Source: Candidatus Omnitrophota bacterium | Lineage (GTDB): Bacteria; Omnitrophota; Gorgyraeia; Gygaellales; Profunditerraquicolaceae | DNA: 64,000 bases | Assembly (NCBI GenBank): GCA_028717885.1 | Contig: JAQUMX010000003.1 | Coordinates: 7,903-71,902 of the forward strand | Direction of reading: 5' to 3' | The notes under the pieces: generated by a model | The model's database searches: none | Told to the model about the DNA's origin: nothing | The model's input: only the letters and a program-made list of their open reading frames with translations | In this document: positions 6,072 to 53,915 of the stretch, in pieces | Layout: each line of letters starts with the position of its first letter | Position numbering within the stretch: position 1 is the first letter of the stretch | Position numbers and translations under genes: made by a program

Positions 6072-7712
6072 TTACATCTTCTCTGGCTGAGAAACTCCCA
6101 ACAATTCCAAACCGCAGGCCAAAACAATCCTTGTTCCCTCCGCCAGCGCTAAGCGCGCCTGAGTCAATTCCCGGTCTTCTCCCAGGACGCGGTGCTGATC
6201 GTAAAATTTATGGAAGGTTTGGCCAAGTTCCTGCAAATAAACCGTAAGCATATAAGGATCCAAAGTAGAAAGACAAATATGCAAGATATAGGAAAACTGG
6301 ACAAGCTTTTTTAACAGGTCGAGCTCCGCCTTTTCCTTCAGCAAGGAAAGGTTTGCTTGGGAAAATTTTACGGCTGCGGGGCTGCTACGTAAAATACTAC
6401 AGATCCTGGCGTGGGCATACTGCACATAAAAAATCGGGTTTTCCGCGGTCTCTTTTTTTGCTACTTCCAAATCAAAATCCAGGTGGCTGGAAGTCCGGCG
6501 CATTAAAAAGAAAAACCGCGCGGCGTCCTTGCCGACCTCATCCAGGACTTCTCTTAAAGTAATATACTGGCCCTTACGCGTGGACATTTGCACAACTTGC
6601 CCCGCGCGGAAAATCGTGGCCAGCTGCACGATGATAATCGATATACTTTCCGATTTATGGCCAAAAGCTTCCACAGAAGCCTTTAAACGATTGATATAAC
6701 CATGGTGATCCGGCCCCCAAAGATTGATCAGCCAACTAAAGCCGCGCTTAAATTTCTCCTGATGATAGGCAATATCAGGAGCTAAGTATGTTTGCGAGCC
6801 GTCGCTTTTAACTACTACCCGGTCTTTATCATCGCCGAATTCCGTAGACTTAAACCAGGTTGCTCCATCCTGCTCATAGAGATAACCTTTGGCCTTAAGG
6901 AATTTAAATGCTTCTTCTATTTTACCGCTTTTGGTCAAGGCCTTTTGGCTTGACCAATGGTCGAACTCCACGCCAAAATCCGCCAATTCTTTTTTAATCA
7001 CATCCAGGATAATCCCGGCGGCAAAATCTCCCAGCTCCTCCTGCTTGATTTTTTTTGCCTTTGCCTCTTTGGCAATATCATAGATATAATCGCCTTGGTA
7101 ATAATTCTCGGGAAACTCCTCTTTTATTCCGTCAAGCTCGCGCATCCTTAATTCCACGGATTTCCCCAGGATATTGATCTGATTTCCTTCGTCATTCAGG
7201 TAATATTCGCGCTCGGCACGGAATCCTAAAAAATTCATGATGCTTGCCAGGGAATCGCCTACTGCAGCTTGCCTGGCATGTGCTACGGACAAAGAGCCGG
7301 TAGGATTGGCACTTACAAATTCGATCAACACCGGCTGCTTTGCGCCAAAATCCTCTTTTAAAGCTTGCTTGCCTTCGCTAAGCAGCTCCTCTAATTTCGC
7401 GTAGAAAAAGTTTTCGGAAAAATAAAAATTAATAAAGCCTGCGCCTTCAACTTTAACCTCTTTAATGAATTTTCCGGCAGGGTCTTTCTGCAGATGCTTA
7501 TTGATCGCTTCGGCCAGGATTGTTGCAGTTTCACGCGGAGATTTTTTTATCCCCTTACAAAGGCGTAGCGCCAAATTGGTAGTCAAATCCCCGAAACTTG
7601 AGCCCGTAGGCAAATCCAAATTAGGCTCTAACGGCGCATCTGCTTGAGGAAAAAGCTCTTTTAGCGCGCCTTTAATTACTGAATTAAGTGCATCTTGTAT
7701 ATTGTTTTTCAT
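6072..7712 (-). CDS. argS: arginine--tRNA ligase
   Basis: 546 aa. Class I signature region SANPTGSLSVAHAR, an MSTRKG (KMSK-like) motif, and a typical DALR-type C-terminus ending in M. Confidence 0.95.
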   Translation of the reverse strand: MKNNIQDALNSVIKGALKELFPQADAPLEPNLDLPTGSSFGDLTTNLALRLCKGIKKSPRETATILAEAINKHLQKDPAGKFIKEVKVEGAGFINFYFSENFFYAKLEELLSEGKQALKEDFGAKQPVLIEFVSANPTGSLSVAHARQAAVGDSLASIMNFLGFRAEREYYLNDEGNQINILGKSVELRMRELDGIKEEFPENYYQGDYIYDIAKEAKAKKIKQEELGDFAAGIILDVIKKELADFGVEFDHWSSQKALTKSGKIEEAFKFLKAKGYLYEQDGATWFKSTEFGDDKDRVVVKSDGSQTYLAPDIAYHQEKFKRGFSWLINLWGPDHHGYINRLKASVEAFGHKSESISIIIVQLATIFRAGQVVQMSTRKGQYITLREVLDEVGKDAARFFFLMRRTSSHLDFDLEVAKKETAENPIFYVQYAHARICSILRSSPAAVKFSQANLSLLKEKAELDLLKKLVQFSYILHICLSTLDPYMLTVYLQELGQTFHKFYDQHRVLGEDRELTQARLALAEGTRIVLACGLELLGVSQPEKM

Positions 7713-10741: not shown

Positions 10742-11525
10742 GTTTTAAATGAGAAACAAAATCTCCCACCCGTTGCACTAAGTTTTTATTGCCGGTATTC
10801 TCTTTGATTTTTTTTACGATCGCGCTTCCCACGATTACTCCGTCGGCAACTTTAAAGACATCCTTTACCTGCCGATTAGTAGAAACCCCGAAGCCAACGC
10901 AAAGTGGCTTTTGGGTATACTTCTTAACCTGGCGCAGCTTCGCCAACAAATCTTTTGGCAGCCCCTTACGCGCTCCGGTAACACCGGTAAGCGAAACATA
11001 ATAGATAAAACCGCGGGAGGCTTTAGCCACAAGCTTAGCACGCTCCAAAGAGGTAGTAGGTGAAATGAAAAATACAGTATCTAAGCCTGCTTTAAGAGAG
11101 TATTTGATCAAACCCTTGCCTTCTTCGGGGGGTAAATCCGGGACAATAATCCCGTCCACTCCGCAGACAACTGCTTTTTTCGCAAACTGCGCATCGCCAA
11201 AAGCAAAAACCGGATTGTAATAAGTCATCAAACAAATCGGTACTTGCGTTCTTCTACGCGCCCTTTTTACCAAATCCAGGATTTGCTTAAGGGTAGTTTT
11301 CTTTTTTAACGCCGCAAAAGAAGCCTCCTGGATCGTCGGGCCGTCTGCCATAGGGTCGGAAAAAGGCACGCCTAATTCGATAATATCTACGCCTCTTTTA
11401 TCCAGCTCTAAAACTAATTTTTCCGTAGTGGCTAAATCCGGAAAACCCGCGGTAATAAAAGCAATAAAGGCCTTTTGTTTTTTGCGCTTTAATTCTGCAA
11501 ATTTTTTATCGATTCGATTTCTCAT
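10734..11525 (-). CDS. trpA: tryptophan synthase alpha chain
   Basis: GVPFSDPMADGPTIQ motif. 263 aa. The start overlaps the trpB stop (ATGA). Confidence 0.95.
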   Translation of the reverse strand: MRNRIDKKFAELKRKKQKAFIAFITAGFPDLATTEKLVLELDKRGVDIIELGVPFSDPMADGPTIQEASFAALKKKTTLKQILDLVKRARRRTQVPICLMTYYNPVFAFGDAQFAKKAVVCGVDGIIVPDLPPEEGKGLIKYSLKAGLDTVFFISPTTSLERAKLVAKASRGFIYYVSLTGVTGARKGLPKDLLAKLRQVKKYTQKPLCVGFGVSTNRQVKDVFKVADGVIVGSAIVKKIKENTGNKNLVQRVGDFVSHLKHV

Positions 11526-12712
11526 CAGAACTTTCCCGTAACAATCCCTAAGTCTTTATCGCCTCTTCCGGAAAGACAAACAATGATAATGGAATTTTTT
11601 CTTTTAGCCCGGTTCATCTTCTTTAAATAACTGAGTGCATGCGAAGATTCCAATGCCGGAATAATGCCTTCTACTTCCGATAATAATTTAAACCCTGCCA
11701 AAGCTTCTTTGTCATTAACTGTCACATATTGGGCACGCCCGATTTTTTGATAATAAGCATGCTCCGGACCCACACCCGGGTAATCTAAACCTGCAGCAAC
11801 AGAATGGGTGTTACTGACTTGCCCGGAATTATCCTGCAAGAGGCTGGATTTTGAACCGTGTAAAACTCCGGGTTTGCCGGCAACCAGGCTGGCTGCGTGT
11901 TTTCCGGTAGATAGCCCTTTCCCTGCGGCTTCCACACCGATAAATTTAACACTTTTATCTTTGAAGAAAGCATAAAACAAACCCATAGCATTACTTCCGC
12001 CGCCCACACAAGCTACTAAATAATCCGGCAGGCGTTTTTCTGCTTTTAAGATCTGCGCGCGCGCTTCCTTTCCGATGATGGACTGAAAATCACGCACCAT
12101 TGCCGGATAAGGATGCGGCCCGGCAACTGTTCCTATAATATAATGCGTATGCCCGACATTGGTAACCCAGTCTCTTAAAGCTTCGGTCATCGCGTCTTTC
12201 AAAGTTTTAGTGCCGCTGGTAACCGGGATCACTCTTGCACCGAGTAATTTCATGCGAAAAACATTTAAACTCTGGCGCTTAATGTCTTCCTCACCCATGT
12301 AGATATCGCACTTCAGTCCAAATTTTGCCGCAACCGTAGCTGTAGCTACTCCGTGCTGGCCGGCGCCGGTTTCCGCAATCACGCGCGGCTTCTTCATTCT
12401 TACGGCAAGTAAAATCTGGCCGAGGGTATTATTGATTTTGTGCGCGCCGGTATGCAGCAGGTCCTCACGCTTAAGATAAACCCTTTTTATTCCTAACTCC
12501 TGGCTTAAACTTTCGGCAAAATATAACGGTGTGGGCCTGCCGGCGTAATCTTTAAGATAATAGGCAAATTCACAGTGGAATCTTTTATCGTGCCTAGCTT
12601 TTGCGTACTCATGCTCGAGCTCATCCAAAGCAAAAATCAGCGTCTCTGAGACGAATCTACCGCCGAAACCATCGAAATGTCCGCTTCTATCAGGTAACAT
12701 ATTTACCCCCAA
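11525..12712 (-). CDS. trpB: tryptophan synthase beta chain
   Basis: PLP-lysine region HTGAHKINN and GGGSNAMG. 395 aa with a TTG start. Confidence 0.95.
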
Positions 12713-12938
12713 AAAAACTCATTATCTGCATCCAAAACAGATGCGTATGATGCATTAAACTTCTAAAGAATTCTTCTATGCCCGGAGGCAAAAGAAGAAA
12801 ATGCAAATTTGGAGAATTTAAAGAGAATATACTATAAACTACGAACTTTAGCAATAAGATACTTAAATATAAAAATCCGGTAAAAATTATAATAATGACC
12901 CAAAAAATTGCCAGGCATCCATAAAAACAGCTAAACAT
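12690..12938 (-). CDS. doubtful small hydrophobic ORF in AT-rich spacer
   Basis: 82-aa ORF with no Shine-Dalgarno sequence. It overlaps the trpB start and has very AT-rich composition. It may simply be non-coding promoter DNA. Confidence 0.2.
12826..12854 (-). promoter_or_regulatory. candidate promoter that could drive trpBA after the insert
   Basis: On the minus strand: TTGCTA (12854-12849), a 17-nt spacer, then TATATT (12831-12826), about 115 nt upstream of trpB. AT-rich context makes chance matches likely. Confidence 0.25.
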
Positions 12939-12997
12939 ATTATTATCTTTAAGTATCTAAATGAATCTGTCCGTGGCTTCTCGCTCTCGCGTATCCC

Positions 12998-13014
12998 GCG
13001 TCTGTCTTGTCTGT
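12998..13014. repeat. solo copy of the palindrome-arm motif gcgtctgtcttgtctgt
   Basis: Identical, apart from one missing c, to the reverse complement of 14071-14088. Weaker similarity extends outward (cgtat...gcgtctgtc). Confidence 0.6.
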
Positions 13015-13035
13015 GCTTTCGTAGCAATATTATCT

Positions 13036-13217
13036 GATTTTATGGTTTCGCTTCCGCGTGCTGAAATTTTTTGCCGTGTGCTTCGGTTTACGCCTCACTT
13101 TCGGTTCGAGACTAACGCATGTGCGCGTCCTCTCGTTCGACGTAATTCCTCGCACACCCTAATCTAAATGCCGGGCCAAAAAATTTCTTATGCACGCTCC
13201 AGCAAAACCATAAAATC
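13036..13217. repeat. 182-nt imperfect palindrome (long hairpin-forming element)
   Basis: The terminal arms gattttatggttt (13036-13048) and aaaccataaaatc (13205-13217) are perfectly complementary. Pairing continues inward through gcgtgc / gaaatttttt / gtgtgc blocks, with bulges. Confidence 0.7.
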
Positions 13218-13251
13218 TACACCATTTTTTGTTCGAAATTTACCGGGCCGC

Positions 13252-13872
13252 TCACGAGCGATAATTTTTTAAAAAGCCCCATAATCTCTGCAAAGCTCCC
13301 GATTCTATGAGTAAAACTAAAATCAAAGAAAAAATACTTATAATCATCAACCAAAAAGACCATTTTCTATATTTAGATAAATTCTTGTCTTTCGTTGTCA
13401 CTTCTCCATAAATTTCATCCACCTTCTTATTATATTCCGTATTATAGCTATCAACCATTTTACAGAATTCAACAGTACCATTATTAAAATTATTCCCAAC
13501 TGCCTGCACAAAATCTTTTTGTATACCCTCAAGTGATTTTAACCTTTTTTTAATAATTTTTATATCAACAGAAATAACTTTTTTTCTATAGATAATTTCT
13601 AAAATAATTGCGAAGAAAGAACAGATTAAAAATAATGACAGGATCTGTGACGCTGGATGTAAATGACTTCCCCTTCCGAATACAAAAGATGCAGCAGCAA
13701 TAATACCAAAATTAATAGTTATATAAAAATGCGAAGTTTTATAAGAGTTTTCGTCACCCAACCCTGTCATACTCTTAGCATTATATTCAATTGCCTCATT
13801 AATTTTCTCTAAGAATTTAAAAGTGACTTCTTCTTTAATTTCAATATCTGATTTATTATGTATTGTTTCCAT
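13252..13872 (-). CDS. orphan membrane protein, 206 aa, three predicted TM helices
   Basis: Visibly AT-rich ORF. Hydrophobic segments are FYITINFGIIAAASFVF, ILSLFLICSFFAIILEII and FWLMIISIFSLILVLLI. No family recognised. Confidence 0.6.
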   Translation of the reverse strand: METIHNKSDIEIKEEVTFKFLEKINEAIEYNAKSMTGLGDENSYKTSHFYITINFGIIAAASFVFGRGSHLHPASQILSLFLICSFFAIILEIIYRKKVISVDIKIIKKRLKSLEGIQKDFVQAVGNNFNNGTVEFCKMVDSYNTEYNKKVDEIYGEVTTKDKNLSKYRKWSFWLMIISIFSLILVLLIESGALQRLWGFLKNYRS

Positions 13873-13893
13873 TTCTTCCCATTTTTAGTGTTA

Positions 13894-14088
13894 GCGCCTG
13901 TCTTTGGCTGTGTTTTTGCGGGGCATAAAGGCAAGGAGCGGGCACGGATGTCCGCATCCGCTCCAAAATTAAAAAAACGGACTTATCCACGGCCGGATGC
14001 GGACAGAGCGACGCAGCCGACATGAGCGAGTCCCGCCTCGCAGGGGCGGGACGAGCGTCCCCGCAAAAATACAGACAAGGACAGACGC
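13894..14088. repeat. 195-nt GC-rich imperfect palindrome
   Basis: The 30-nt arms 13894-13923 and 14059-14088 are complementary at 26 of 30 positions. The interior contains an 11-bp perfect stem (13950-13960 with 13994-14004) and an 8-bp stem (14030-14037 with 14045-14052). Confidence 0.7.
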
Positions 14089-14124
14089 AAAAAATACGTA
14101 ATTTTAAATCAAAGAGCGCGAAAT

Positions 14125-14739
14125 TTATCCCTTAGCAGCAGCGATGAAGCGCTTGACGCGCTTATGATCCTTCTTGCCGGGCTTTGATTCCAAAGAGCTC
14201 GAAGCATCCACCCACGCCGGATGCACAGCTTTAATTGCTGCCTGCACATTCTTGGCATTCAGGCCGCCGGATAAAAATATCGATTCTTTCAAATCGCCGA
14301 GTTGCGTAAGCAAGTTCCAGTTAAATTTTTTTCCGGTGCCGCCTAATTTGGCTTGGGAAAAAGTATCAAAAAGAAACCCAAAAACCTTATATTTTGAGAC
14401 ATCTTTTAGGCCGGCCTGATTTTTTACCCGGAAAACCTTAATCACCTTATAGTTTTTAAATTTCTTACAGAATTCCGGCGACTCGCTACCGTGAAACTGC
14501 AAGATATCCAAACAGCATGCCTTGGCAATCTGTTTAATAGTTTTCTCTTTTGCATCGACAAATACGCCGATCTTAATAATATCCTTTGGGATATCCTTGA
14601 TAATTTCTTTGGCGTCTGCCACGGAAATATAGCGCGGGCTGTTTCTATAAAATAAAAAACCTAAGGCATCGCAGCCGGCTGCCACTGCCACCCTGGCATC
14701 CTCTACATTAGTAATACCGCAAATTTTTACTCTTACCAC
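14125..14739 (-). CDS. trpF: phosphoribosylanthranilate isomerase
   Basis: VRVKICGIT N-terminus and overall TrpF-like sequence. I place the start at the GTG at 14739, which overlaps the trpC stop (GTGGTAA). The ORF-track start at 14805 would add 22 unlikely residues. Confidence 0.9.
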   Translation of the reverse strand: MVRVKICGITNVEDARVAVAAGCDALGFLFYRNSPRYISVADAKEIIKDIPKDIIKIGVFVDAKEKTIKQIAKACCLDILQFHGSESPEFCKKFKNYKVIKVFRVKNQAGLKDVSKYKVFGFLFDTFSQAKLGGTGKKFNWNLLTQLGDLKESIFLSGGLNAKNVQAAIKAVHPAWVDASSSLESKPGKKDHKRVKRFIAAAKG

Positions 14740-15527
14740 CCCATCACCTCTTGCACTTTTTTTCCGATATCGGGGGCTTCCATAAATGCGGTGCCGATTA
14801 AACATGCAGCTACGCCTAAAATTTTTAAGAACAAAACATCCTGGTAGCTTTTAATCCCGCTTTCTACGACTACGGTTTTATCTTTAGGGATCAAAGGGAA
14901 AAGTTTTTCCGTAGTTTTAAAATCAGTTTCCAGGGTATGTAAATTGCGGTTATTAATGCCGATTAAGCTTATTGATTTTAACTTTAATACTTTTTTTAGT
15001 TCTTTCTCGTCGTGAACTTCAACTAAAACTTCCATCCCCAGGCTATTTGCTAACTCCGTTAAAATAACAATATTTTCCTGCGTAAGTAAATCCGCAATCA
15101 ACAATATCGCATCCGCACCGAAATAACGCGATTCATAGACCTGATATTCTTCCAGGATAAAATCTTTTCTTAAGGCCGGGCCGGTGAAGATATTTTTTAC
15201 TTCGTTAATATAAGAAGTATTCCCCTGAAAATAATCCTCTTCGGTTAAAACCGAAACCGCCTGCACTCCCGCCTCCTGATAAACTGAGGCGATATTCTGT
15301 GGGTTAAAATCTTCACGGATCACGCCGCGCGAAGGAGAAGCTTTTTTAATTTCGGCAATCAAACAAATTTCCCGCGGCTTGAAAATTGCCTTAATAAATG
15401 GCCGCGTAGGCGGCAGGCCCGTACATTTTGCTTTCAGGTCCTCCAAAGGCAAAGCAGTTTTTGCCAGAAGGATTTTTTCTCTTTTTTTAGCAACAATTTC
15501 TTTTAGGCTATCGGATTTTTTAGTCAT
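14733..15527 (-). CDS. trpC: indole-3-glycerol phosphate synthase
   Basis: IAEIKKASPSRG motif, 264 aa, in trp operon context. Confidence 0.95.
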   Translation of the reverse strand: MTKKSDSLKEIVAKKREKILLAKTALPLEDLKAKCTGLPPTRPFIKAIFKPREICLIAEIKKASPSRGVIREDFNPQNIASVYQEAGVQAVSVLTEEDYFQGNTSYINEVKNIFTGPALRKDFILEEYQVYESRYFGADAILLIADLLTQENIVILTELANSLGMEVLVEVHDEKELKKVLKLKSISLIGINNRNLHTLETDFKTTEKLFPLIPKDKTVVVESGIKSYQDVLFLKILGVAACLIGTAFMEAPDIGKKVQEVMGW

Positions 15528-16530
15528 GCGAAAACCCCTTTAATAATTCGAACTTTTCGAAAGCCTTCCCGGAATCAATTGCGTTTTTGGCTAATTCTAT
15601 GCCGTCCTGAATCGACTTTACTTTATCCGCGGCGTAGATAGCAGCTGCCGCATTTAACAAGACAATATCGCGCTTTGCTCCTTTAGCGCCCTTTAAAATA
15701 TTTAAGAAAATTTGTGCATTTAACGCGGTGTCCCCTCCTGCCAAATCAGCGATTGCAACGCGCTTAAAACCAAAATCTTCCGGCTTAATTTCATAAGTCT
15801 TAACTTTGCCCTTAGATTCTTCGGAAATCACCGTAGAATCCGTAGTAGTAATTTCATCCAGGCCGTCATTACCATGCACAACCAAAGCATGCTCTGAGCC
15901 TAATTTGGCGAGTGCCTCTGCCAAAGGCAGCGTCCAGCGCTGGTCAAAGACCCCGATTAACTGATGTGTAGCACAGGCAGGATTACTTAAGGGCCCCAAG
16001 AGATTAAAAATTGTGCGTTTGCCCATTTTTTTGCGCGCTTCCGCAACATATTTCATCGCCGGATGCAGGTTTTGCGCGAATAAAAAAGCAATCCCGATTT
16101 TTTCCAGGCACTCCTGGCTTTTTTCCGGGGCAAGATTGATATCTACTCCCAACTTTTCCAGGATATCGGCGCTGCCGGCAGAACTGGAAACCGCGCGGTT
16201 ACCGTGTTTTGCTACTATGATCCCGCAGGCGCTGGCCACAAAAGCTACGGACGTGGAAATATTAAAAGTACCTGCCCTATCTCCGCCTGTCCCGCAGGTA
16301 TCTAAAACGACCCTTTCTTTGGGGCAAACTTTTCTTACATGAGTGCGCATCACCAGTGCCGCTTCAACCAATTCTTCGATAGTCTCGCCCTTCTTGTTCA
16401 ATGCTTCCAAAAAAGGCACAATCTCTTCGGTCTCTACCTCACCGCATAAAATTTCTTCCATCACGGCGGACATCTGGCCTTGAGTTAAATCTTTGCCGCT
16501 GGCAATAATTGCTGTTATCTCTTTGATCAT
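15520..16530 (-). CDS. trpD: anthranilate phosphoribosyltransferase
   Basis: DTCGTGGD and KHGNRA motifs. 336 aa. Confidence 0.95.
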
Positions 16531-17090
16531 AGTTCGAGAAAATTCCGCAGGATATCCTTGCCGGATTTAGTCAAAATCGATTCCGGATGGAATTGTACAC
16601 CCCAAAGCGGGAACTTTTTATGTTTTAACCCCATAATCTCTTTTTCTTTGGTCCAGGCAGTAACTTCCAGGCACGCAGGCAGGGACTTTCTTTCAACCAA
16701 TAATGAATGGTACCTGGTAGCTTCAAAAGGATTGGGAATATAGCGGAAAATCTCTTTTTTGTTGTGGTAAATCAATGAAGTTTTTCCGTGCATTAATTTT
16801 TTTGCGATGATAATCTTGCCTCCGTAGGTAAAACCGATTGCTTGATGCCCGAGGCAAACCCCTAAAATCGGTATTTTTCCGGCGAACTGCCTGATTACTT
16901 CGCAGGAAATCCCGGCATTCTCCGGCCTCCCGGGGCCGGGAGAGATGACGATTTTTTCGGGGGATAGCTTTTTAATTGCGGCAATCGAAATTTTATCGTT
17001 ACGGAAGACTTTTACCTTAACACCCAACTCGCCCAGATACTGCACCAGGTTATAGGTAAAAGAATCGTAATTATCGATCATCAAAATCAT
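16527..17090 (-). CDS. trpG: anthranilate/aminodeoxychorismate synthase glutamine amidotransferase component II
   Basis: Triad-type GATase with GVCLGHQ and a C-terminal FHPES motif. 187 aa. Overlaps the murA stop by 4 nt. Confidence 0.9.
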
Positions 17091-18355
17091 TCTCTTTCCC
17101 TCCAGATCCGCGCCCCAATTTTTTCCAGTTTTGATTCGATGTTCTCATACCCGCGCTCTAAATGATAAATCCTGGAGATCGCGGTTTTTCCTTTTGCTAC
17201 CAGGCCTGCCAATACCAAAGACGCCGAAGCGCGTAAATCCGAGGCCATTACAGGCGCACCGGATAACGACTTTATCCCCGCTACAATTGCGTGCGGGCCT
17301 TCTCTTTGAATAGTTGCACCCATACGGTTTAATTCCGCCACGTGCATAAAGCGGTCAGGATAAATCTTTTCGGTAATCACGCTAATGCCGGGCGTAACAC
17401 TCATTAAGCTCATGAATTGAGCCTGCATATCTGTGGCAAACCCGGGAAAAGGCAAAGTCGTAATATTTACCGGCTTTAAATTTTTTCTGGAATATACGCG
17501 TAAGGAATTTTCTGACTTACAAACGCAAGCACCCGCTTCCTGCAATTTATCGATTAAAGCTCCCAGATGGCCGCAGCAGGCATTCTTGATCGTAATATCT
17601 CCCCGGGTAATCAAGGATGCCAACATAAAAGTACCGGCTTCGATCCGGTCAGGAATAATCCTATGCTCAGCTCCGTGCAAATGTTTTACGCCTTCGATTT
17701 CGATAATCGGCGTGCCATGGCCTTTGATCTTTGCGCCCATCTTAATCAAAAATTCTGCCAAATCCGCCACTTCCGGCTCACAAGCAGCTGACTCAATCAC
17801 AGTATTCCCCTGGGCGAACACTGCAGCCATCATCACATTATCCGTGGCCAATACCGAAGAACCAAAAACTCCTCCCAGATAGACTAAATTGCCTTTCAAT
17901 TTTTTCGCCGAGGCCACCACATAACCGCCCTCAACATCGATCTCTGCTCCCAATGCTTTCAATCCTTTAATATGCAAATCTACGGGCCTAATCCCGATAA
18001 TACAACCGCCGGGCAGAGAAACTTTGGCTTTTTTCAATTTAGCTAAAAGCGGGCCCAGGACGCAGAAAGAAGCGCGCATTGTGGAAACTAATTTGTAGTC
18101 CGCGATGTAACTGATATTTTTACTGGGGCTAACCGTGACTACACCTTTATCACCGTCAAAATCTACCGCTTTACCGAGAGAACGCAGGATTTTAAACATC
18201 GTGTTGGTATCGCGCAAATTCGGCACGCCTCTTAGCACGCAAGCATCATCGGTAAGAAGCGTAGCTGCCAAAATCGGCAACACTGAATTCTTTGCCCCGG
18301 AAACCGTAACCTCCCCTTTTAAAGGAAGGCTGCCTTCAATAAGTAATTTATCCAT
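17087..18355 (-). CDS. murA: UDP-N-acetylglucosamine 1-carboxyvinyltransferase
   Basis: VSGAKNS N-terminal motif and the catalytic Cys loop [15 protein letters not shown]. 422 aa. Confidence 0.95.
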
Positions 18356-18358
18356 TCT

Positions 18359-19171
18359 CTACCTTTTCTCTATGATGGCTACCCTGTCGATATTATTATA
18401 ATCCTTTATTACTTCTATTGCCTCAAAATTTTTATTTTTCTGGAAAATATTTTTTATTCCTTCTAGCTGGCCAAAGCCGATTTCCAGGATCAATTTACCA
18501 TGTATTTTCAGGCATCTTCCGCAAGTGAGCGCGATTTTACGGTAAAAATCCAGGCCATCCTCTCCGCCATCCAAAGCTATTCTCGGCTCATAAGCAATCT
18601 CTGGCTGAAGTTGAGAAATTTCCCAAGAGGGGATGTATGGAGGATTACTGACGATAATGTCATACTGCGTACGGCGTACGGCGTACGGAGAGAGCAGATT
18701 GCCTTGAATGAACTGAATTCTTTCATCTACCCCATGCAATATCGCATTTTGCTTTGCAATTCTTAATGCCTGTTCTGAAATATCAACTGCAGTTATTTTT
18801 GCAGCAGGAAACATCTTAGCCAAAAAAACAGCGATACAGCCGGAACCTGTCCCCAAATCTAGAAGGCTCAAACTTATGGCGTTGTGGCCCTGTGACTTTG
18901 TGACTTCCTGAACCACCTTTTCAACAAGTATCTCCGTCTCCTGCCTGGGGATCAATACACCGGGCTCAACCTTAAATTCCAGCCCCATGAATTCTGTTTT
19001 GCCGAGGATATACTGCAACGGCTCGCCATGAATCCTTCTTTTTAAAACTGTACCGATATATTTGGAAATTTCGGCATTTAAAGGCAGGGCGCGATTGCGG
19101 TATAAAGACATTCTGTCGCAACCTAAAACTTCAGCAAATAAGATTTCTGCTTCTGTCATTTTAATAAGCAC
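18359..19171 (-). CDS. prmC: release-factor glutamine N5-methyltransferase
   Basis: SAM-binding DLGTGSG and catalytic NPPY motifs. Lies directly downstream of prfA. Confidence 0.9.
   Translation of the reverse strand: MLIKMTEAEILFAEVLGCDRMSLYRNRALPLNAEISKYIGTVLKRRIHGEPLQYILGKTEFMGLEFKVEPGVLIPRQETEILVEKVVQEVTKSQGHNAISLSLLDLGTGSGCIAVFLAKMFPAAKITAVDISEQALRIAKQNAILHGVDERIQFIQGNLLSPYAVRRTQYDIIVSNPPYIPSWEISQLQPEIAYEPRIALDGGEDGLDFYRKIALTCGRCLKIHGKLILEIGFGQLEGIKNIFQKNKNFEAIEVIKDYNNIDRVAIIEKR
18667..18688. repeat. perfect tandem heptamer (GCGTACG)x3 inside prmC
   Basis: gcgtacg gcgtacg gcgtacg g, read directly from 18667-18688. It encodes SPYAVRRTQ. Confidence 0.85.
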
Positions 19172-47522: not shown

Positions 47523-48581
47523 CTAATTTATCTGATTTAATAATGCCGAAACGCTTTTTCTTAAGGTAACCTTTTTTATTGCTTTGCCGTGTTTAAATAA
47601 AAGGCCCTCTTTCTTTCCGAAAGCTATTCCCAAATCAGCTTCTTTTGCTTCGCCTGGGCCATTGACTACGCAGCCCATGACTGCTATTTTTAAAGGCTTC
47701 GCCCGTACGGAGTACGGCGTACGGCGTAGGGCGCTCTCTAATTCTTTAACAACATTCACCAAATCCACTTCGCAGCGCCCGCAGGTCGGGCAACTGATAA
47801 TTTGTGGCCCGAAATTACGTAGTTCCAAGGCTTCTAAAATACTCTTCGCCGCCTTAACTTCTTCTTGCGGCTCTTGCGTAAGAGAGATGCGGATCGTATC
47901 TCCGATTCCCTCTAAAAGCAATGCCCCTACTGCGATAGCGGATTTGACCGCTCCGCAAAAAGGCGCACCCGTAGCAGTCACACCCAGATGCAGAGGATAA
48001 TCACAAGCCTTAGCCATCAAACGATACGCTTCCACAGTATCGCGAATATTCGAAGCTTTCAAAGAAATGACAATATCATGGAAATTACAGCTTTCCAAAA
48101 TCTTGATATAATCTAAAGCGCTTTTTACCATCCGCCCGGGAACACCCCTTTGTCCGCCCCCTTTAGGAAGCGAACCGGAATTTAGCCCCATCCGGATAGG
48201 AATTTTTCTTTTTTTCGCGGCTTTTGCTACTGCAACTACTTCTTCTTTACGAAAAATATTCCCCGGGTTTAACCGGATTTTATCCGCGCCGTTTTCCATT
48301 GCGGTAATGCCTAAACGCCAGTCGAAATGAATGTCTGCCACCAACGGCATCTTTACTTTAGGCTTGATCCTGGCAAATGCCCTGGCGTCATCCATATCTT
48401 TTACTGCCAGGCGCACGATCTCACACCCGCTTTTCTCCAATTCTTTAATCTGGGCGATAACTTTAGCGGTATGCGCGGTCTTAAATTTTACCATCGACTG
48501 AATGGCAACCGGATGATTTCCCCCGATACAAAGAGCGCCGATCCTTACTACCCTAGCCTTACGCCGAAATAACTTTGCCAT
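47523..48581 (-). CDS. ispG: 4-hydroxy-3-methylbut-2-en-1-yl diphosphate synthase
   Basis: Fe-S ligand motifs ISCPTCGRC and GCVVNGPGE. 352 aa. Confidence 0.95.
   Translation of the reverse strand: MAKLFRRKARVVRIGALCIGGNHPVAIQSMVKFKTAHTAKVIAQIKELEKSGCEIVRLAVKDMDDARAFARIKPKVKMPLVADIHFDWRLGITAMENGADKIRLNPGNIFRKEEVVAVAKAAKKRKIPIRMGLNSGSLPKGGGQRGVPGRMVKSALDYIKILESCNFHDIVISLKASNIRDTVEAYRLMAKACDYPLHLGVTATGAPFCGAVKSAIAVGALLLEGIGDTIRISLTQEPQEEVKAAKSILEALELRNFGPQIISCPTCGRCEVDLVNVVKELESALRRTPYSVRAKPLKIAVMGCVVNGPGEAKEADLGIAFGKKEGLLFKHGKAIKKVTLRKSVSALLNQIN
47704..47731. repeat. four degenerate tandem units of the CGTACGG heptamer inside ispG
   Basis: cgtacgg agtacgg cgtacgg cgtaggg, read directly from the sequence. 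It encodes LRRTPYSVRA. Confidence 0.75.
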
Positions 48582-52334: not shown

Positions 52335-53915
52335 TTACTGGTGGACGCGGTAATCTATTTCCGGGAAAATATTATCCTTATATTCTATGTCCCTTAGCCA
52401 ATTATCATCGATTGCCCCGGATTTGATCTGCTCATACAGTGTTGTGAAGCGCAAAAGATGGTCCTTGGTACGCCTTACGGCGTAAGACACATGAGTACCG
52501 GTACCCATAATAAAAGCCCAGTCGGAACTTTGGGCAAGGAGTAGCTCTCTTAACGCCTGATTCAAGGCGCGCTTGACAATGCCGTTACAGGAATTCTGCG
52601 AATGGGCTTTTGCCAATTCGGTCATGCGGTAAGAAGACGTGTGCAAATGGCGGTAAATCCAGTCATTGGAGCCTTGCAGCCACATTTCGCTATAACCTTT
52701 CCATCCCCAGCTGGACATCGAAGGAGTAATCACCTGGTTACGCGGATTTTCCAATAAATATTCGGATGGAGTGGTCATTTTAATCGTCTTCTGGTCAAAA
52801 TACGTCTTACGAATAAGAAATTCCAGCCACATCGGGCCTTCATACCACCAATGGCCGTATAATTCCGCATCGTACGGAGAAACAATGATCGGTTTCTTCT
52901 GCATAAAATCATACAGATATTCTACCTGTTTTTCGCGGTTAAACAGGAAGTTACCCGCATGCTCTGCCGCTTTTTTCCAGGCCATATGCGCATCATAAGG
53001 CTGCTTATTGTCACTGCCGGTAATCCGGTAGTATTTAATGCCGGTGTTAATCCTAATTCCGTCGCGATGGATATAGGGGCGGATATAATCATAGTCAAGG
53101 TCAAAACCGATATCGCGGTAAAACTCACGGTAAAAATAATCACCGGGATAACCCTCAATAGAAGACCAGACTTGTTTTGAAGATTCCAAATCCCTGCCAA
53201 AACAAGCTACTCCTGATTTACAATATACAGGAGCAAAAACTCCGTATTTCGGGCGGGGAGTGCCGTGTAGCACCGAATGTGCATCGCCGAAGAAATAACG
53301 TAAGCCTGATTCTTTCAGGATTTCATCGTGCCCCGGCTGATAGCCACACTCCGGCAGCCAAATGCCAATCGGTTTCCTGCCGAAATTCTTTTCGTAGTGG
53401 CTCACTGCCACTTTTACCTGCGCGCGCACCGATTCCCTGCAAACATCCATCAGAGGAAAATAACCGTGAGTAGCGCCGCAGGTAACGATTTCAACTTTGC
53501 CTAAATCCTGAAAGCCTTTAAAGGCGCTAATCAGATTGCGCCGGTAGCGCTCGAAAATATCGCGCGACTTACAGAAATTATGCAAATACATCTGCGCCAA
53601 GGCATGAAATTCTCCCTGCCAACGCGTTCTTTCAACTTCCTTATGTGCCAATTCAATAAGTTGATTGATATGCTTAAGGTATCTTTCCTGCAAAAGCGGG
53701 TCAGTAAGCATGGAGATCAGGCTCGGGGTCAAAGACATCGTCACCCGGAAATCCACATTTTCATTGATCAGCCTTTCAAAAACATCAATTAAAGGGATAT
53801 AGGTTTCCGTGATTGCTTCGTATAACCAATCCTCCTCGAGAAATTCTTCATGTTCCGGATGCCGTACGAACGGAAGGTGCGTATGCAGAACTATGCAAAG
53901 ATACCCTTTATTCAT
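52335..53915 (-). CDS. glycoside hydrolase family 57 enzyme (probable 1,4-alpha-glucan branching enzyme type)
   Basis: LHTHLPFVRHPE N-terminus, WLPECGY, and SSDWAFIM regions typical of GH57. 526 aa. Confidence 0.85.
   Translation of the reverse strand: MNKGYLCIVLHTHLPFVRHPEHEEFLEEDWLYEAITETYIPLIDVFERLINENVDFRVTMSLTPSLISMLTDPLLQERYLKHINQLIELAHKEVERTRWQGEFHALAQMYLHNFCKSRDIFERYRRNLISAFKGFQDLGKVEIVTCGATHGYFPLMDVCRESVRAQVKVAVSHYEKNFGRKPIGIWLPECGYQPGHDEILKESGLRYFFGDAHSVLHGTPRPKYGVFAPVYCKSGVACFGRDLESSKQVWSSIEGYPGDYFYREFYRDIGFDLDYDYIRPYIHRDGIRINTGIKYYRITGSDNKQPYDAHMAWKKAAEHAGNFLFNREKQVEYLYDFMQKKPIIVSPYDAELYGHWWYEGPMWLEFLIRKTYFDQKTIKMTTPSEYLLENPRNQVITPSMSSWGWKGYSEMWLQGSNDWIYRHLHTSSYRMTELAKAHSQNSCNGIVKRALNQALRELLLAQSSDWAFIMGTGTHVSYAVRRTKDHLLRFTTLYEQIKSGAIDDNWLRDIEYKDNIFPEIDYRVHQ

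Follow-up and report, generated by a model that had tools for sequence, protein, structure and literature searches.

Enterobacterial repetitive intergenic consensus (ERIC) sequences, also called intergenic repeat units (IRU), bacterial interspersed mosaic elements (BIME) and the neisserial intergenic mosaic elements (NIME) are imperfect palindromes, or mosaics built of palindromic units, in the transcribed intergenic regions of operons, where they occur in either orientation. Some of these elements are longer through internal insertions, and the hairpins they form in mRNA can affect transcript stability. In mobile insertion cassettes (MIC), such as MIC231 of Bacillus cereus, and in composite pairs of miniature inverted-repeat transposable elements (MITE), a passenger other than a transposase gene is enclosed by non-autonomous repeat ends. 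Here, we analyze an insert of 1.4 kb between trpF and trpB in the tryptophan (trp) operon of a Candidatus Omnitrophota bacterium. The insert lies in a 64,000-nt stretch of assembly GCA_028717885.1 (contig JAQUMX010000003.1, positions 7,903 to 71,902), which is called the window and to which coordinates refer unless another locus, designated by an L number, is named. It contains two long palindromes, element A and element B, and between them an AT-rich open reading frame (ORF), ORF206. Doublets of repetitive extragenic palindromes (REP) that form hairpins, or REPINs, are also inverted repeats, with a spacer that varies in sequence while keeping the hairpin, and they are moved by REP-associated tyrosine transposases (RAYT) (PMC3337134).

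We give a probability of roughly two in three to the reading that the insert is a mosaic of dispersed, hairpin-forming Omnitrophota repeats with one cargo gene. A and B belong to two repeat families of Omnitrophota that are conserved, dispersed and, it appears, not yet described, and ORF206 is one of many interchangeable cargo genes between the repeats. An initial annotation, made from the sequence alone, had read the insert as a horizontally acquired cassette or mobile element. This reading is broadly supported by the multi-copy dispersal of the repeats, the swapped cargo and the empty junctions in relatives. The palindromes, a solo copy of the A arm motif and the AT-rich ORF were all found at the positions it had given. 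Read along the plus strand, in the orientation of the families and antisense to trp, the insert has module C, an A-type 5' arm, B, ORF206 (on the opposite strand) and A, in this order. The GC content is 0.60 for A, 0.47 for B and 0.285 for ORF206, compared to 0.443 for the window. The two palindromes are the strongest inverted repeats within the window, and their folding is far more stable than that of shuffled sequences on both strands (z -5.0 to -7.4).

Like a REPIN as defined in PMC3337134, B has two conserved inverted arms and a variable spacer that keeps a hairpin. Both are extragenic and multi-copy and have no transposase of their own, and B also has no target duplication. B differs in its length of 150-185 bp, compared to about 90 bp for a REPIN, in being most conserved near the apex and not in short terminal REPs, in its coupling to the branched element A and to cargo genes, and in its occurrence in a phylum with no reported system of such kind. 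No RAYT gene was seen in the metagenome contigs examined. The Omnitrophota modules share with the ERIC, BIME and NIME families a palindromic mosaic structure, an intergenic position in operons, occurrence in either orientation, and nested or longer variants. They have no sequence relationship to these families, however, and they are larger, include a branched covarying module and repeatedly flank single accessory genes.

The trpF-trpB junction was compared among relatives by scanning species-representative genomes for TrpF, which gave about 30 Omnitrophota loci with 42-63% identity. Eight of these relatives have an empty junction, with trpF and trpB abutting (distance -9 to 41 nt), whereas about a dozen others have a small gene there and a few have GC-rich structured DNA. 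This empty-site comparison supports the 1.4 kb as an insertion in the trp operon and shows that the spacer is not a conserved ancestral part of it. The small gene encodes a conserved protein of 104-119 aa found between trpF and trpB in many Omnitrophota (L007, L012, L014, L017, L019, L023, L025-L027, L029-L032 and L201). Its N-terminal zinc ribbon (MKKCPFCxEEIQDDAxKCKHCGEFL) is followed by a membrane segment, and an ..FWE.. motif is conserved towards the C-terminus. The window has a remnant of this gene that aligns with 13 relatives by blastp and tblastn at 25-31% identity (E 1e-4 to 9e-8 in small searches), and every alignment begins at residue 27-33. The remnant keeps an open 82-aa ORF from ATG 12938 and overlaps the probable trpB start, ATG 12701, by about 11 nt. 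Since the small gene is without its 5' end, the 1.4 kb is an insertion that also deleted the start of the resident gene. The roughly 250 bp that had been described as AT-rich DNA with a possible promoter is therefore mostly coding (ORF 12690-12950). The start previously assigned to trpB, TTG 12712, also changes: ATG 12701 is likelier, and its start context, MLPDRSG, agrees with relatives. No presence/absence polymorphism was found within the species, where the sole other contig with the same genes is identical.

Homologues of B were detected by nhmmer at the same trp junction in L007, L011 and L015, and the core they share gave the search pattern TTACGNCGA N35-60 GTAAACCGNAGCNNAC. In its strict form, this pattern matched at least 120 metagenome contigs, one of which was a chance match to 23S rRNA. 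Among the matches listed, trp genes were near B on only two contigs, and many extra copies of both B and A were found outside the trp locus. Copies of B that are 92-98% identical lie in unrelated flanks with no flank similarity, and near-identical copies occupy unrelated housekeeping operons. Eight contigs carry at least two B copies, at most 14 kb apart; L202 has two full B-A units 6.9 kb apart, and extra copies of A also occur on single contigs. Among 770 ORFs flanking B at the 120 listed loci, no protein family recurred and no transposase, integrase or reverse transcriptase was present; the neighbors are ordinary housekeeping genes. Where the proteins flanking B or the insert have named close relatives, these are from Omnitrophota. 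The A and B patterns had no match in IMG/VR viral contigs, and blastn of the insert against phage and plasmid collections gave none. Across a B copy, contig L092 matches one group of contigs to the left and a different group to the right (compared to L116/L166 and L141/L185). In L190, B is flipped relative to its A-like context compared to L146. These two cases are either real recombination at repeats or chimeras of metagenome assembly. Separately, the B copy at about 1283-1350 of L114 begins right after the 3' end of a tRNA gene.

B folds into a hairpin some 150-185 bp long, with two conserved inverted arms on either side of a variable apex of about 40-45 nt. Copies resemble each other exactly as far as the terminal inverted repeats (TIR), for example ATTTTAGGG...CCCTAAAAT, and no further; the ends read ATTTTATGG.../...CCATAAAAT. 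In the window, the 13-bp perfect terminal arms noted before (13036-13048 and 13205-13217) can be extended to 26 nt at 85%. At the ends of 79 copies, direct repeats of 2-6 nt were no commoner than in shuffled flank pairings, so no target-site duplication was detected. The automatic boundary walk halted at internal bulges in about 35 of the 79 copies, and element lengths are reliable only for the full-length subset. Orientation was scored at the 60 sites with called genes on both sides of B: 52 lie between co-directional genes (30 sense, 22 antisense), seven between divergent genes and one between convergent genes. In an alignment of 87 non-redundant copies (A2), the 26 core pairs are 93% Watson-Crick and many covary between two states (for example CG 43 / GC 39; UA 46 / CG 28 / GC 11; UA 41 / CG 40). 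There is no excess of G-U over A-C (22 and 19, with one fixed position excluded).

Members of the A family are branched structures of about 160-200 bp that a long outer helix closes. The family consensus reads AGCGGGTGGCTTGG..TGATTTCGAGC-core-GCGAGAAACA..CAAGACAGGACCCGCT, beginning TTAGCGGGTGGC and ending ...GACAGGACCCGCT, and the core contains GAGCGGGCA, AGAGCGAGG, CGAGCG and a hairpin with the loop nCGCTGG (TCGCAGG in the window). A five-helix structure was drawn from 22 copies (alignment A3). Its positions are 91% paired, compared to 74% in column shuffles and 32-49% when the partners are slid, and compensatory changes occur at 21 of the 30 pairs. Helix 5, the stem of the conserved hairpin with this loop, is an example (UA13/CG7, GC15/UA5, CG13/GC3). 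As with B, G-U pairs (13) do not exceed A-C (20). The 30-nt arms of A in the window (13894-13923 and 14059-14088) have 26 complementary positions out of 30, as the initial annotation had counted; with mismatches allowed, they reach 38 nt (13886-13923 and 14059-14096, 82%). The internal perfect stem that it gave as 11 bp has 12 (13949-13960 and 13994-14005). This stem lies in an insertion specific to the window, inside which a weak terminator-like hairpin followed by a T-run is found in the trp direction (14005-13984, minus strand).

The solo arm at 12998-13014 (GCGTCTGTCTTGTCTGT) is indeed an inverted copy of 14071-14088 except for one indel, and the arm motif occurs twice in 64 kb compared to 0.01 times expected. 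L101 and L112 have a B about 85% identical by blastn to the window B, and there an A-type shell, formed by this 5' arm and a 3' arm directly behind B, surrounds B. The window has no such 3' partner for the solo arm, and the cargo begins at that place. Since the same 5' arm closes an A-type helix around B in those two loci, the two arms that bracket 1.09 kb (12998 and 14088) are the A outer helix used twice. Their description as inverted copies stands; they are not transposon ends but halves of the A outer helix, and they have no target-site duplication. Module C is a third, shorter repeat. Its exact 12-mer was found in nine other loci, always beside repeat modules, and there it is usually an inverted pair, C/C', flanking B or other modules. 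A 68-nt form, mini-A, has the A outer shell with a small hairpin inside (GCGGGTGACGA..ATTTGAGG-hairpin-CGAGAAA..CGGCAGGACCCGC) and an internal loop that resembles tandem G.A pairs. It was found in L011 (about 7040-7110), L012 (about 6345-6415) and L020 (about 2805-2870), just upstream of the small gene or trpB, and partially in L029. Combinations and nestings of B, A, mini-A and C vary between loci, and B can lie within A or within the A outer helix. At the trpF-trpB junction, B, A or mini-A is present in 8 of about 32 Omnitrophota loci, in the sense orientation in L007 and L011 and in the antisense orientation in the window, L015 and L201. The spacer of L201 (8700-9200) has C, a GC-rich module of about 150 nt, C', B in antisense, a remnant of the A 3' arm and an intact zinc-ribbon gene.

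Cargo genes were found where B and A are separated. Of the loci with both elements inside 1.1 kb, about 24 have A downstream of B and on its strand, and other arrangements were found at one or two. At about 17 loci, A starts 75-145 nt past the B core, which is about 10-60 nt past the closing stem of B; in L202, the linker is 9 nt. In seven loci, one of them the window, the gap measures 440-850 nt, has 27-36% GC and contains exactly one ORF of 106-247 aa. These ORFs all differ between loci, and each has an end abutting the start of A, TTAGCGG. L195 is an eighth cargo locus, with one AT-rich ORF in the linker and then a divergent A-like region. Three of these loci are orthologous: the left flank and B of L118, L195 and L204 are 86-88% identical, and L118 and L195 are similar again downstream of A. 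They carry three different cargo ORFs and different A subtypes. The cargo is co-directional with the host operon where this could be judged (the window, L100 and L118/L195/L204). The AT-rich ORF, which had been proposed as a passenger gene, thus behaves as exchangeable cargo between the palindromes, with different ORFs at a recurring B-A position. Two B copies can also flank a gene. In L097 and L101 they flank one AT-rich ORF, and in L127 (4600-5601) a RhuM and Fic/DOC gene lies between two B copies of the same orientation. The L127 segment is not AT-poor relative to its contig (GC 0.38 compared to 0.40).

ORF206 is a genuine gene and encodes a predicted membrane protein, with homologues of 50-62% identity in three unrelated contexts. 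At these loci (L002-L006), the homologue is accompanied neither by large inverted repeats nor by A or B matches. Its Pfam match to 8xMP is weak (E=0.011) and below the cutoff. With Pfam and PADLOC, the cargo proteins gave sub-threshold matches only, namely 8xMP, Trypco2 for the cargo of L100 (E=0.002) and Cas2b-like noise. The closest homologue of ORF206 (62%; L002 1066-2788, L003 2107-3829) lies directly after a gene with a faint CAP12-PCTIR_TIR match. This context hints at conflict or defence for the protein family.

Coordinates of the features in and around the trp insert (window positions; HMM, hidden Markov model).
Feature	Position	Strand	Evidence or remark
Element B, long imperfect hairpin	13036-13217	+	nhmmer B HMM, 139 bits
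B conserved core, around variable apex	CGGTTTAC 13084-13091 to TCGACGTAA 13137-13145	+	
Element A, branched GC-rich repeat	13886-14096	+ (antisense to trp)	nhmmer A-family HMM, 99 bits, E=8e-29
A motif CATAAAGGC	13924-13932	+	Conserved in family
A motif GAGCGGGCA	13936-13944	+	Conserved in family
A motif AGAGCGACG	14005-14013	+	Conserved in family
A motif GCCGACATGAGCG	14016-14028	+	Conserved in family
A motif GAGCGTCCCCGC	14053-14064	+	Conserved in family
Hairpin inside A	14030-14052	+	8-bp stem GTCCCGCC/GGCGGGAC, covaries across family
Window-specific insertion in A, ~50 nt	13949-14005	+	Absent from the other 21 copies in alignment A3
ORF206 cargo, 206 aa, predicted membrane protein	13252-13872	- (trp direction)	Exactly in the B-A linker; 28.5% GC
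Solo arm, 5' half of A-type outer helix	12998-13021	+	Alignment with L101, L112, L111
Module C (AATGAATCTGTC...TTCTCGCTC)	12960-12986	+	Third short repeat module, left copy only
Zinc-ribbon membrane-protein gene remnant	12690-12950	-	Residues 27-106 retained, zinc ribbon lost
trpF (PRAI)	14125-14805	-	Pfam PRAI, E=1.6e-41; final gene ahead of insert
trpB	11525-12701	-	Pfam PALP; probable start ATG 12701

The minus-strand gene order around the insert is prmC-like, aroA, trpG, trpD, trpC, trpF, the 1.4-kb insert, trpB and trpA. The gene directly upstream of trpG and overlapping it is aroA (EPSP synthase; 16527-18355) and not trpE. No adjacent trpE is present at the window locus, where a prmC-like methyltransferase gene precedes aroA. 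Also, a heptamer-like repeat motif, TACGGCGTACGGCGTACGG, has three copies in the window (18663-18688, 47706-47731 and 52462-52487), two of which are 88% alike.

Alternatively, A and B could encode one or two functional structured RNAs, as whole genes or as domains, that act in trans or in cis, with the ORF between them by chance. The initial annotation had offered two large structured RNAs as its alternative. Covariation in A and B is strong and fits this idea, the folds are very stable, and B and A keep a fixed order on a common strand. A also has conserved single-stranded motifs (GAGCGGGCA, AGAGCGA, CGAGCG and the CGCTGGG loop) and an internal loop like tandem G.A. The idea fits poorly, however, with near-identical copies in high number at unrelated sites and with both orientations inside operons (30:22). 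G-U is not above A-C on either strand, as a signature of the transcribed strand would have it, and conserved promoter or terminator flanks were not seen. B nested in A or in the A outer helix is typical of insertions and not of one RNA architecture. Also, Rfam 15 had no match at gathering score in the window and 15 better-conserved loci, which leaves no housekeeping RNA, and at E<=10 it gave chance-level matches only for A and B. We therefore regard functional RNAs as an unlikely explanation. A Pedo-repair match from Rfam was dismissed at 17 bits compared to a cutoff of 150. Several other identities were rejected by inspection only, based on copy number, orientation, an absent partner protein or absent core motifs: a T-box or attenuator, 6S RNA, signal recognition particle RNA, retron noncoding RNA, a TnpB omega RNA, a group I or II intron and, in mini-A, a hammerhead-like core. 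A regulatory role limited to trp, in which the spacer is an ancestral attenuator or riboswitch for trpBA, can draw on the repeat modules at a quarter of the trpF-trpB junctions (8 of about 32), but it is contradicted by the distribution of B, as 118 of 120 copies among the matches listed lie away from trp genes. The spacer is missing altogether in eight relatives, the orientation of the modules at the trp junction varies, and there was no T-box or other Rfam match. This role is hardly credible.

The inserted gene could instead point to an integron-like or transposon-like unit. As in an integron, a promoterless and often orphan AT-rich ORF lies beside an imperfect palindrome that is conserved in structure and not in sequence, and the cargo at the same site differs between relatives. 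A, and perhaps B, could then be the folded-DNA site of a dispersed system in which a dedicated recombinase inserts an ORF plus A. L118, L195 and L204 differ from the B end to the A 3' arm, which is the cargo with most of A, and six of the eight cargo ORFs point towards A, with a stop codon abutting or overlapping TTAGCGG. Covariation that lacks a G-U bias is in keeping with single-stranded DNA as the substrate. If cargo plus A inserted ahead of a resident 3' arm, the result would be the order seen in the window (5' arm, B, cargo, 5' arm, A core, 3' arm). The same pattern is, however, explained by homologous recombination through the conserved repeats, and two cargo ORFs point the opposite way. 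No integrase or other recombinase recurs nearby, and neither an attI site nor cassette arrays were found. The attC core sites RYYYAAC and GTTRRRY were not visible at the ends of A or B (inspection only). In contrast to integron cassettes, the Omnitrophota sites are dispersed singly in housekeeping operons, and most B and A copies have no cargo. Membership among integrons fails for want of core sites, integrase and arrays, and site-specific insertion of this kind is improbable. A broader form of the idea, that A and B are folded-DNA sites of a new Omnitrophota cassette-exchange system, a dispersed counterpart of integrons, is quite unlikely. In it, a dedicated enzyme would insert or swap single promoterless genes, each with most of A, into B-A landing pads, and the genes would be expressed by read-through. 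The initial annotation had also suggested a MITE-like element with a passenger gene, in which the arms at 12998 and 14088 bracket 1.09 kb like TIRs. In the classical form, this would be a transposon derived from an insertion sequence (IS). The arms agree at 17 of 18 positions and bracket the ORF, the family is dispersed, B copies end in TIRs, and, as in a MIC, the repeats enclose a non-transposase passenger gene. Those arms, however, are the two strands of the A outer helix, which surrounds A alone in 22 copies, and B and A have each spread independently. Direct repeats are absent at the element flanks, including 12990/14096, and no related element with a transposase was found among the neighbors of the listed B loci. 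The IS-type TIRs, target duplications and known parent IS of MICs were not found in the Omnitrophota elements, and the flanking elements are unlike each other, with B on one side and A on the other. Since no target duplication was found, and no parent IS among the neighbors of the listed B loci, membership among classical MITEs and MICs fails, and we consider such a transposon very improbable.

Returning to the mosaic of dispersed repeats with one cargo gene, A and B would be non-autonomous mobile or recombinogenic DNA that is handled by an enzyme encoded elsewhere. The selected form is probably a folded single DNA strand, as in REPIN/RAYT or IS200/IS605-type systems, or else a hairpin able to act whichever way it is transcribed; a single-strand mechanism of the HUH type is possible but doubtful. 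Cargo would be gained or swapped through recombination, either homologous between the conserved repeats or site-specific near the A 3' arm, and would be expressed via read-through from the host operon. Hairpins would form in the trp mRNA in either orientation and may uncouple the stability or translation of trpGDCF from that of trpBA. The two hairpins predicted in the trp mRNA sense are very stable, at -97 and -86 kcal/mol, and in this model could be processing, stabilising or partial termination sites.

Several points weigh against the mosaic reading. Mobility is taken from the distribution of copies only, since no transposase, recombinase or autonomous parent element was seen in the roughly 1.6 Mb examined. 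Copy counts are per metagenome contig and not per complete genome, and some of the cases with different flanks, as well as the flipped B in L190, could be assembly chimeras at repeats. Multiple copies on single contigs and the consistent cargo layout make a chimeric origin harder to maintain. The conserved unpaired motifs of A and the fixed B-to-A order would suit a functional RNA as well, and one B position, with G.T in 50 of 87 copies, introduces a slight asymmetry between the strands. Only eight B-A loci with cargo were found, and cargo ORFs other than ORF206 have no confirmed homologues. The window itself has one B and one A, with no further copies or mini-copies in its 64 kb.

Omnitrophota is an uncultured and widespread phylum whose mobile DNA is almost unexplored. 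The A and B repeats are unusually large, highly conserved across genera and absent from Rfam 15, and with their textbook covariation they are easily misannotated as novel RNAs. Full-text literature searches turned up no paper on repeats of this kind, or on structured RNAs, in Omnitrophota. They account for contig breaks and chimeric joins in Omnitrophota metagenome assemblies, and they are portable markers with which accessory genes can be found. In the trp operon, the insert separates trpF from trpB by a foreign gene and two very stable hairpins and destroys the start of the small gene. The B-cargo-A layout, in which related genomes have different orphan genes at one site, suggests a way for small accessory genes to enter operons and leave them undisrupted.

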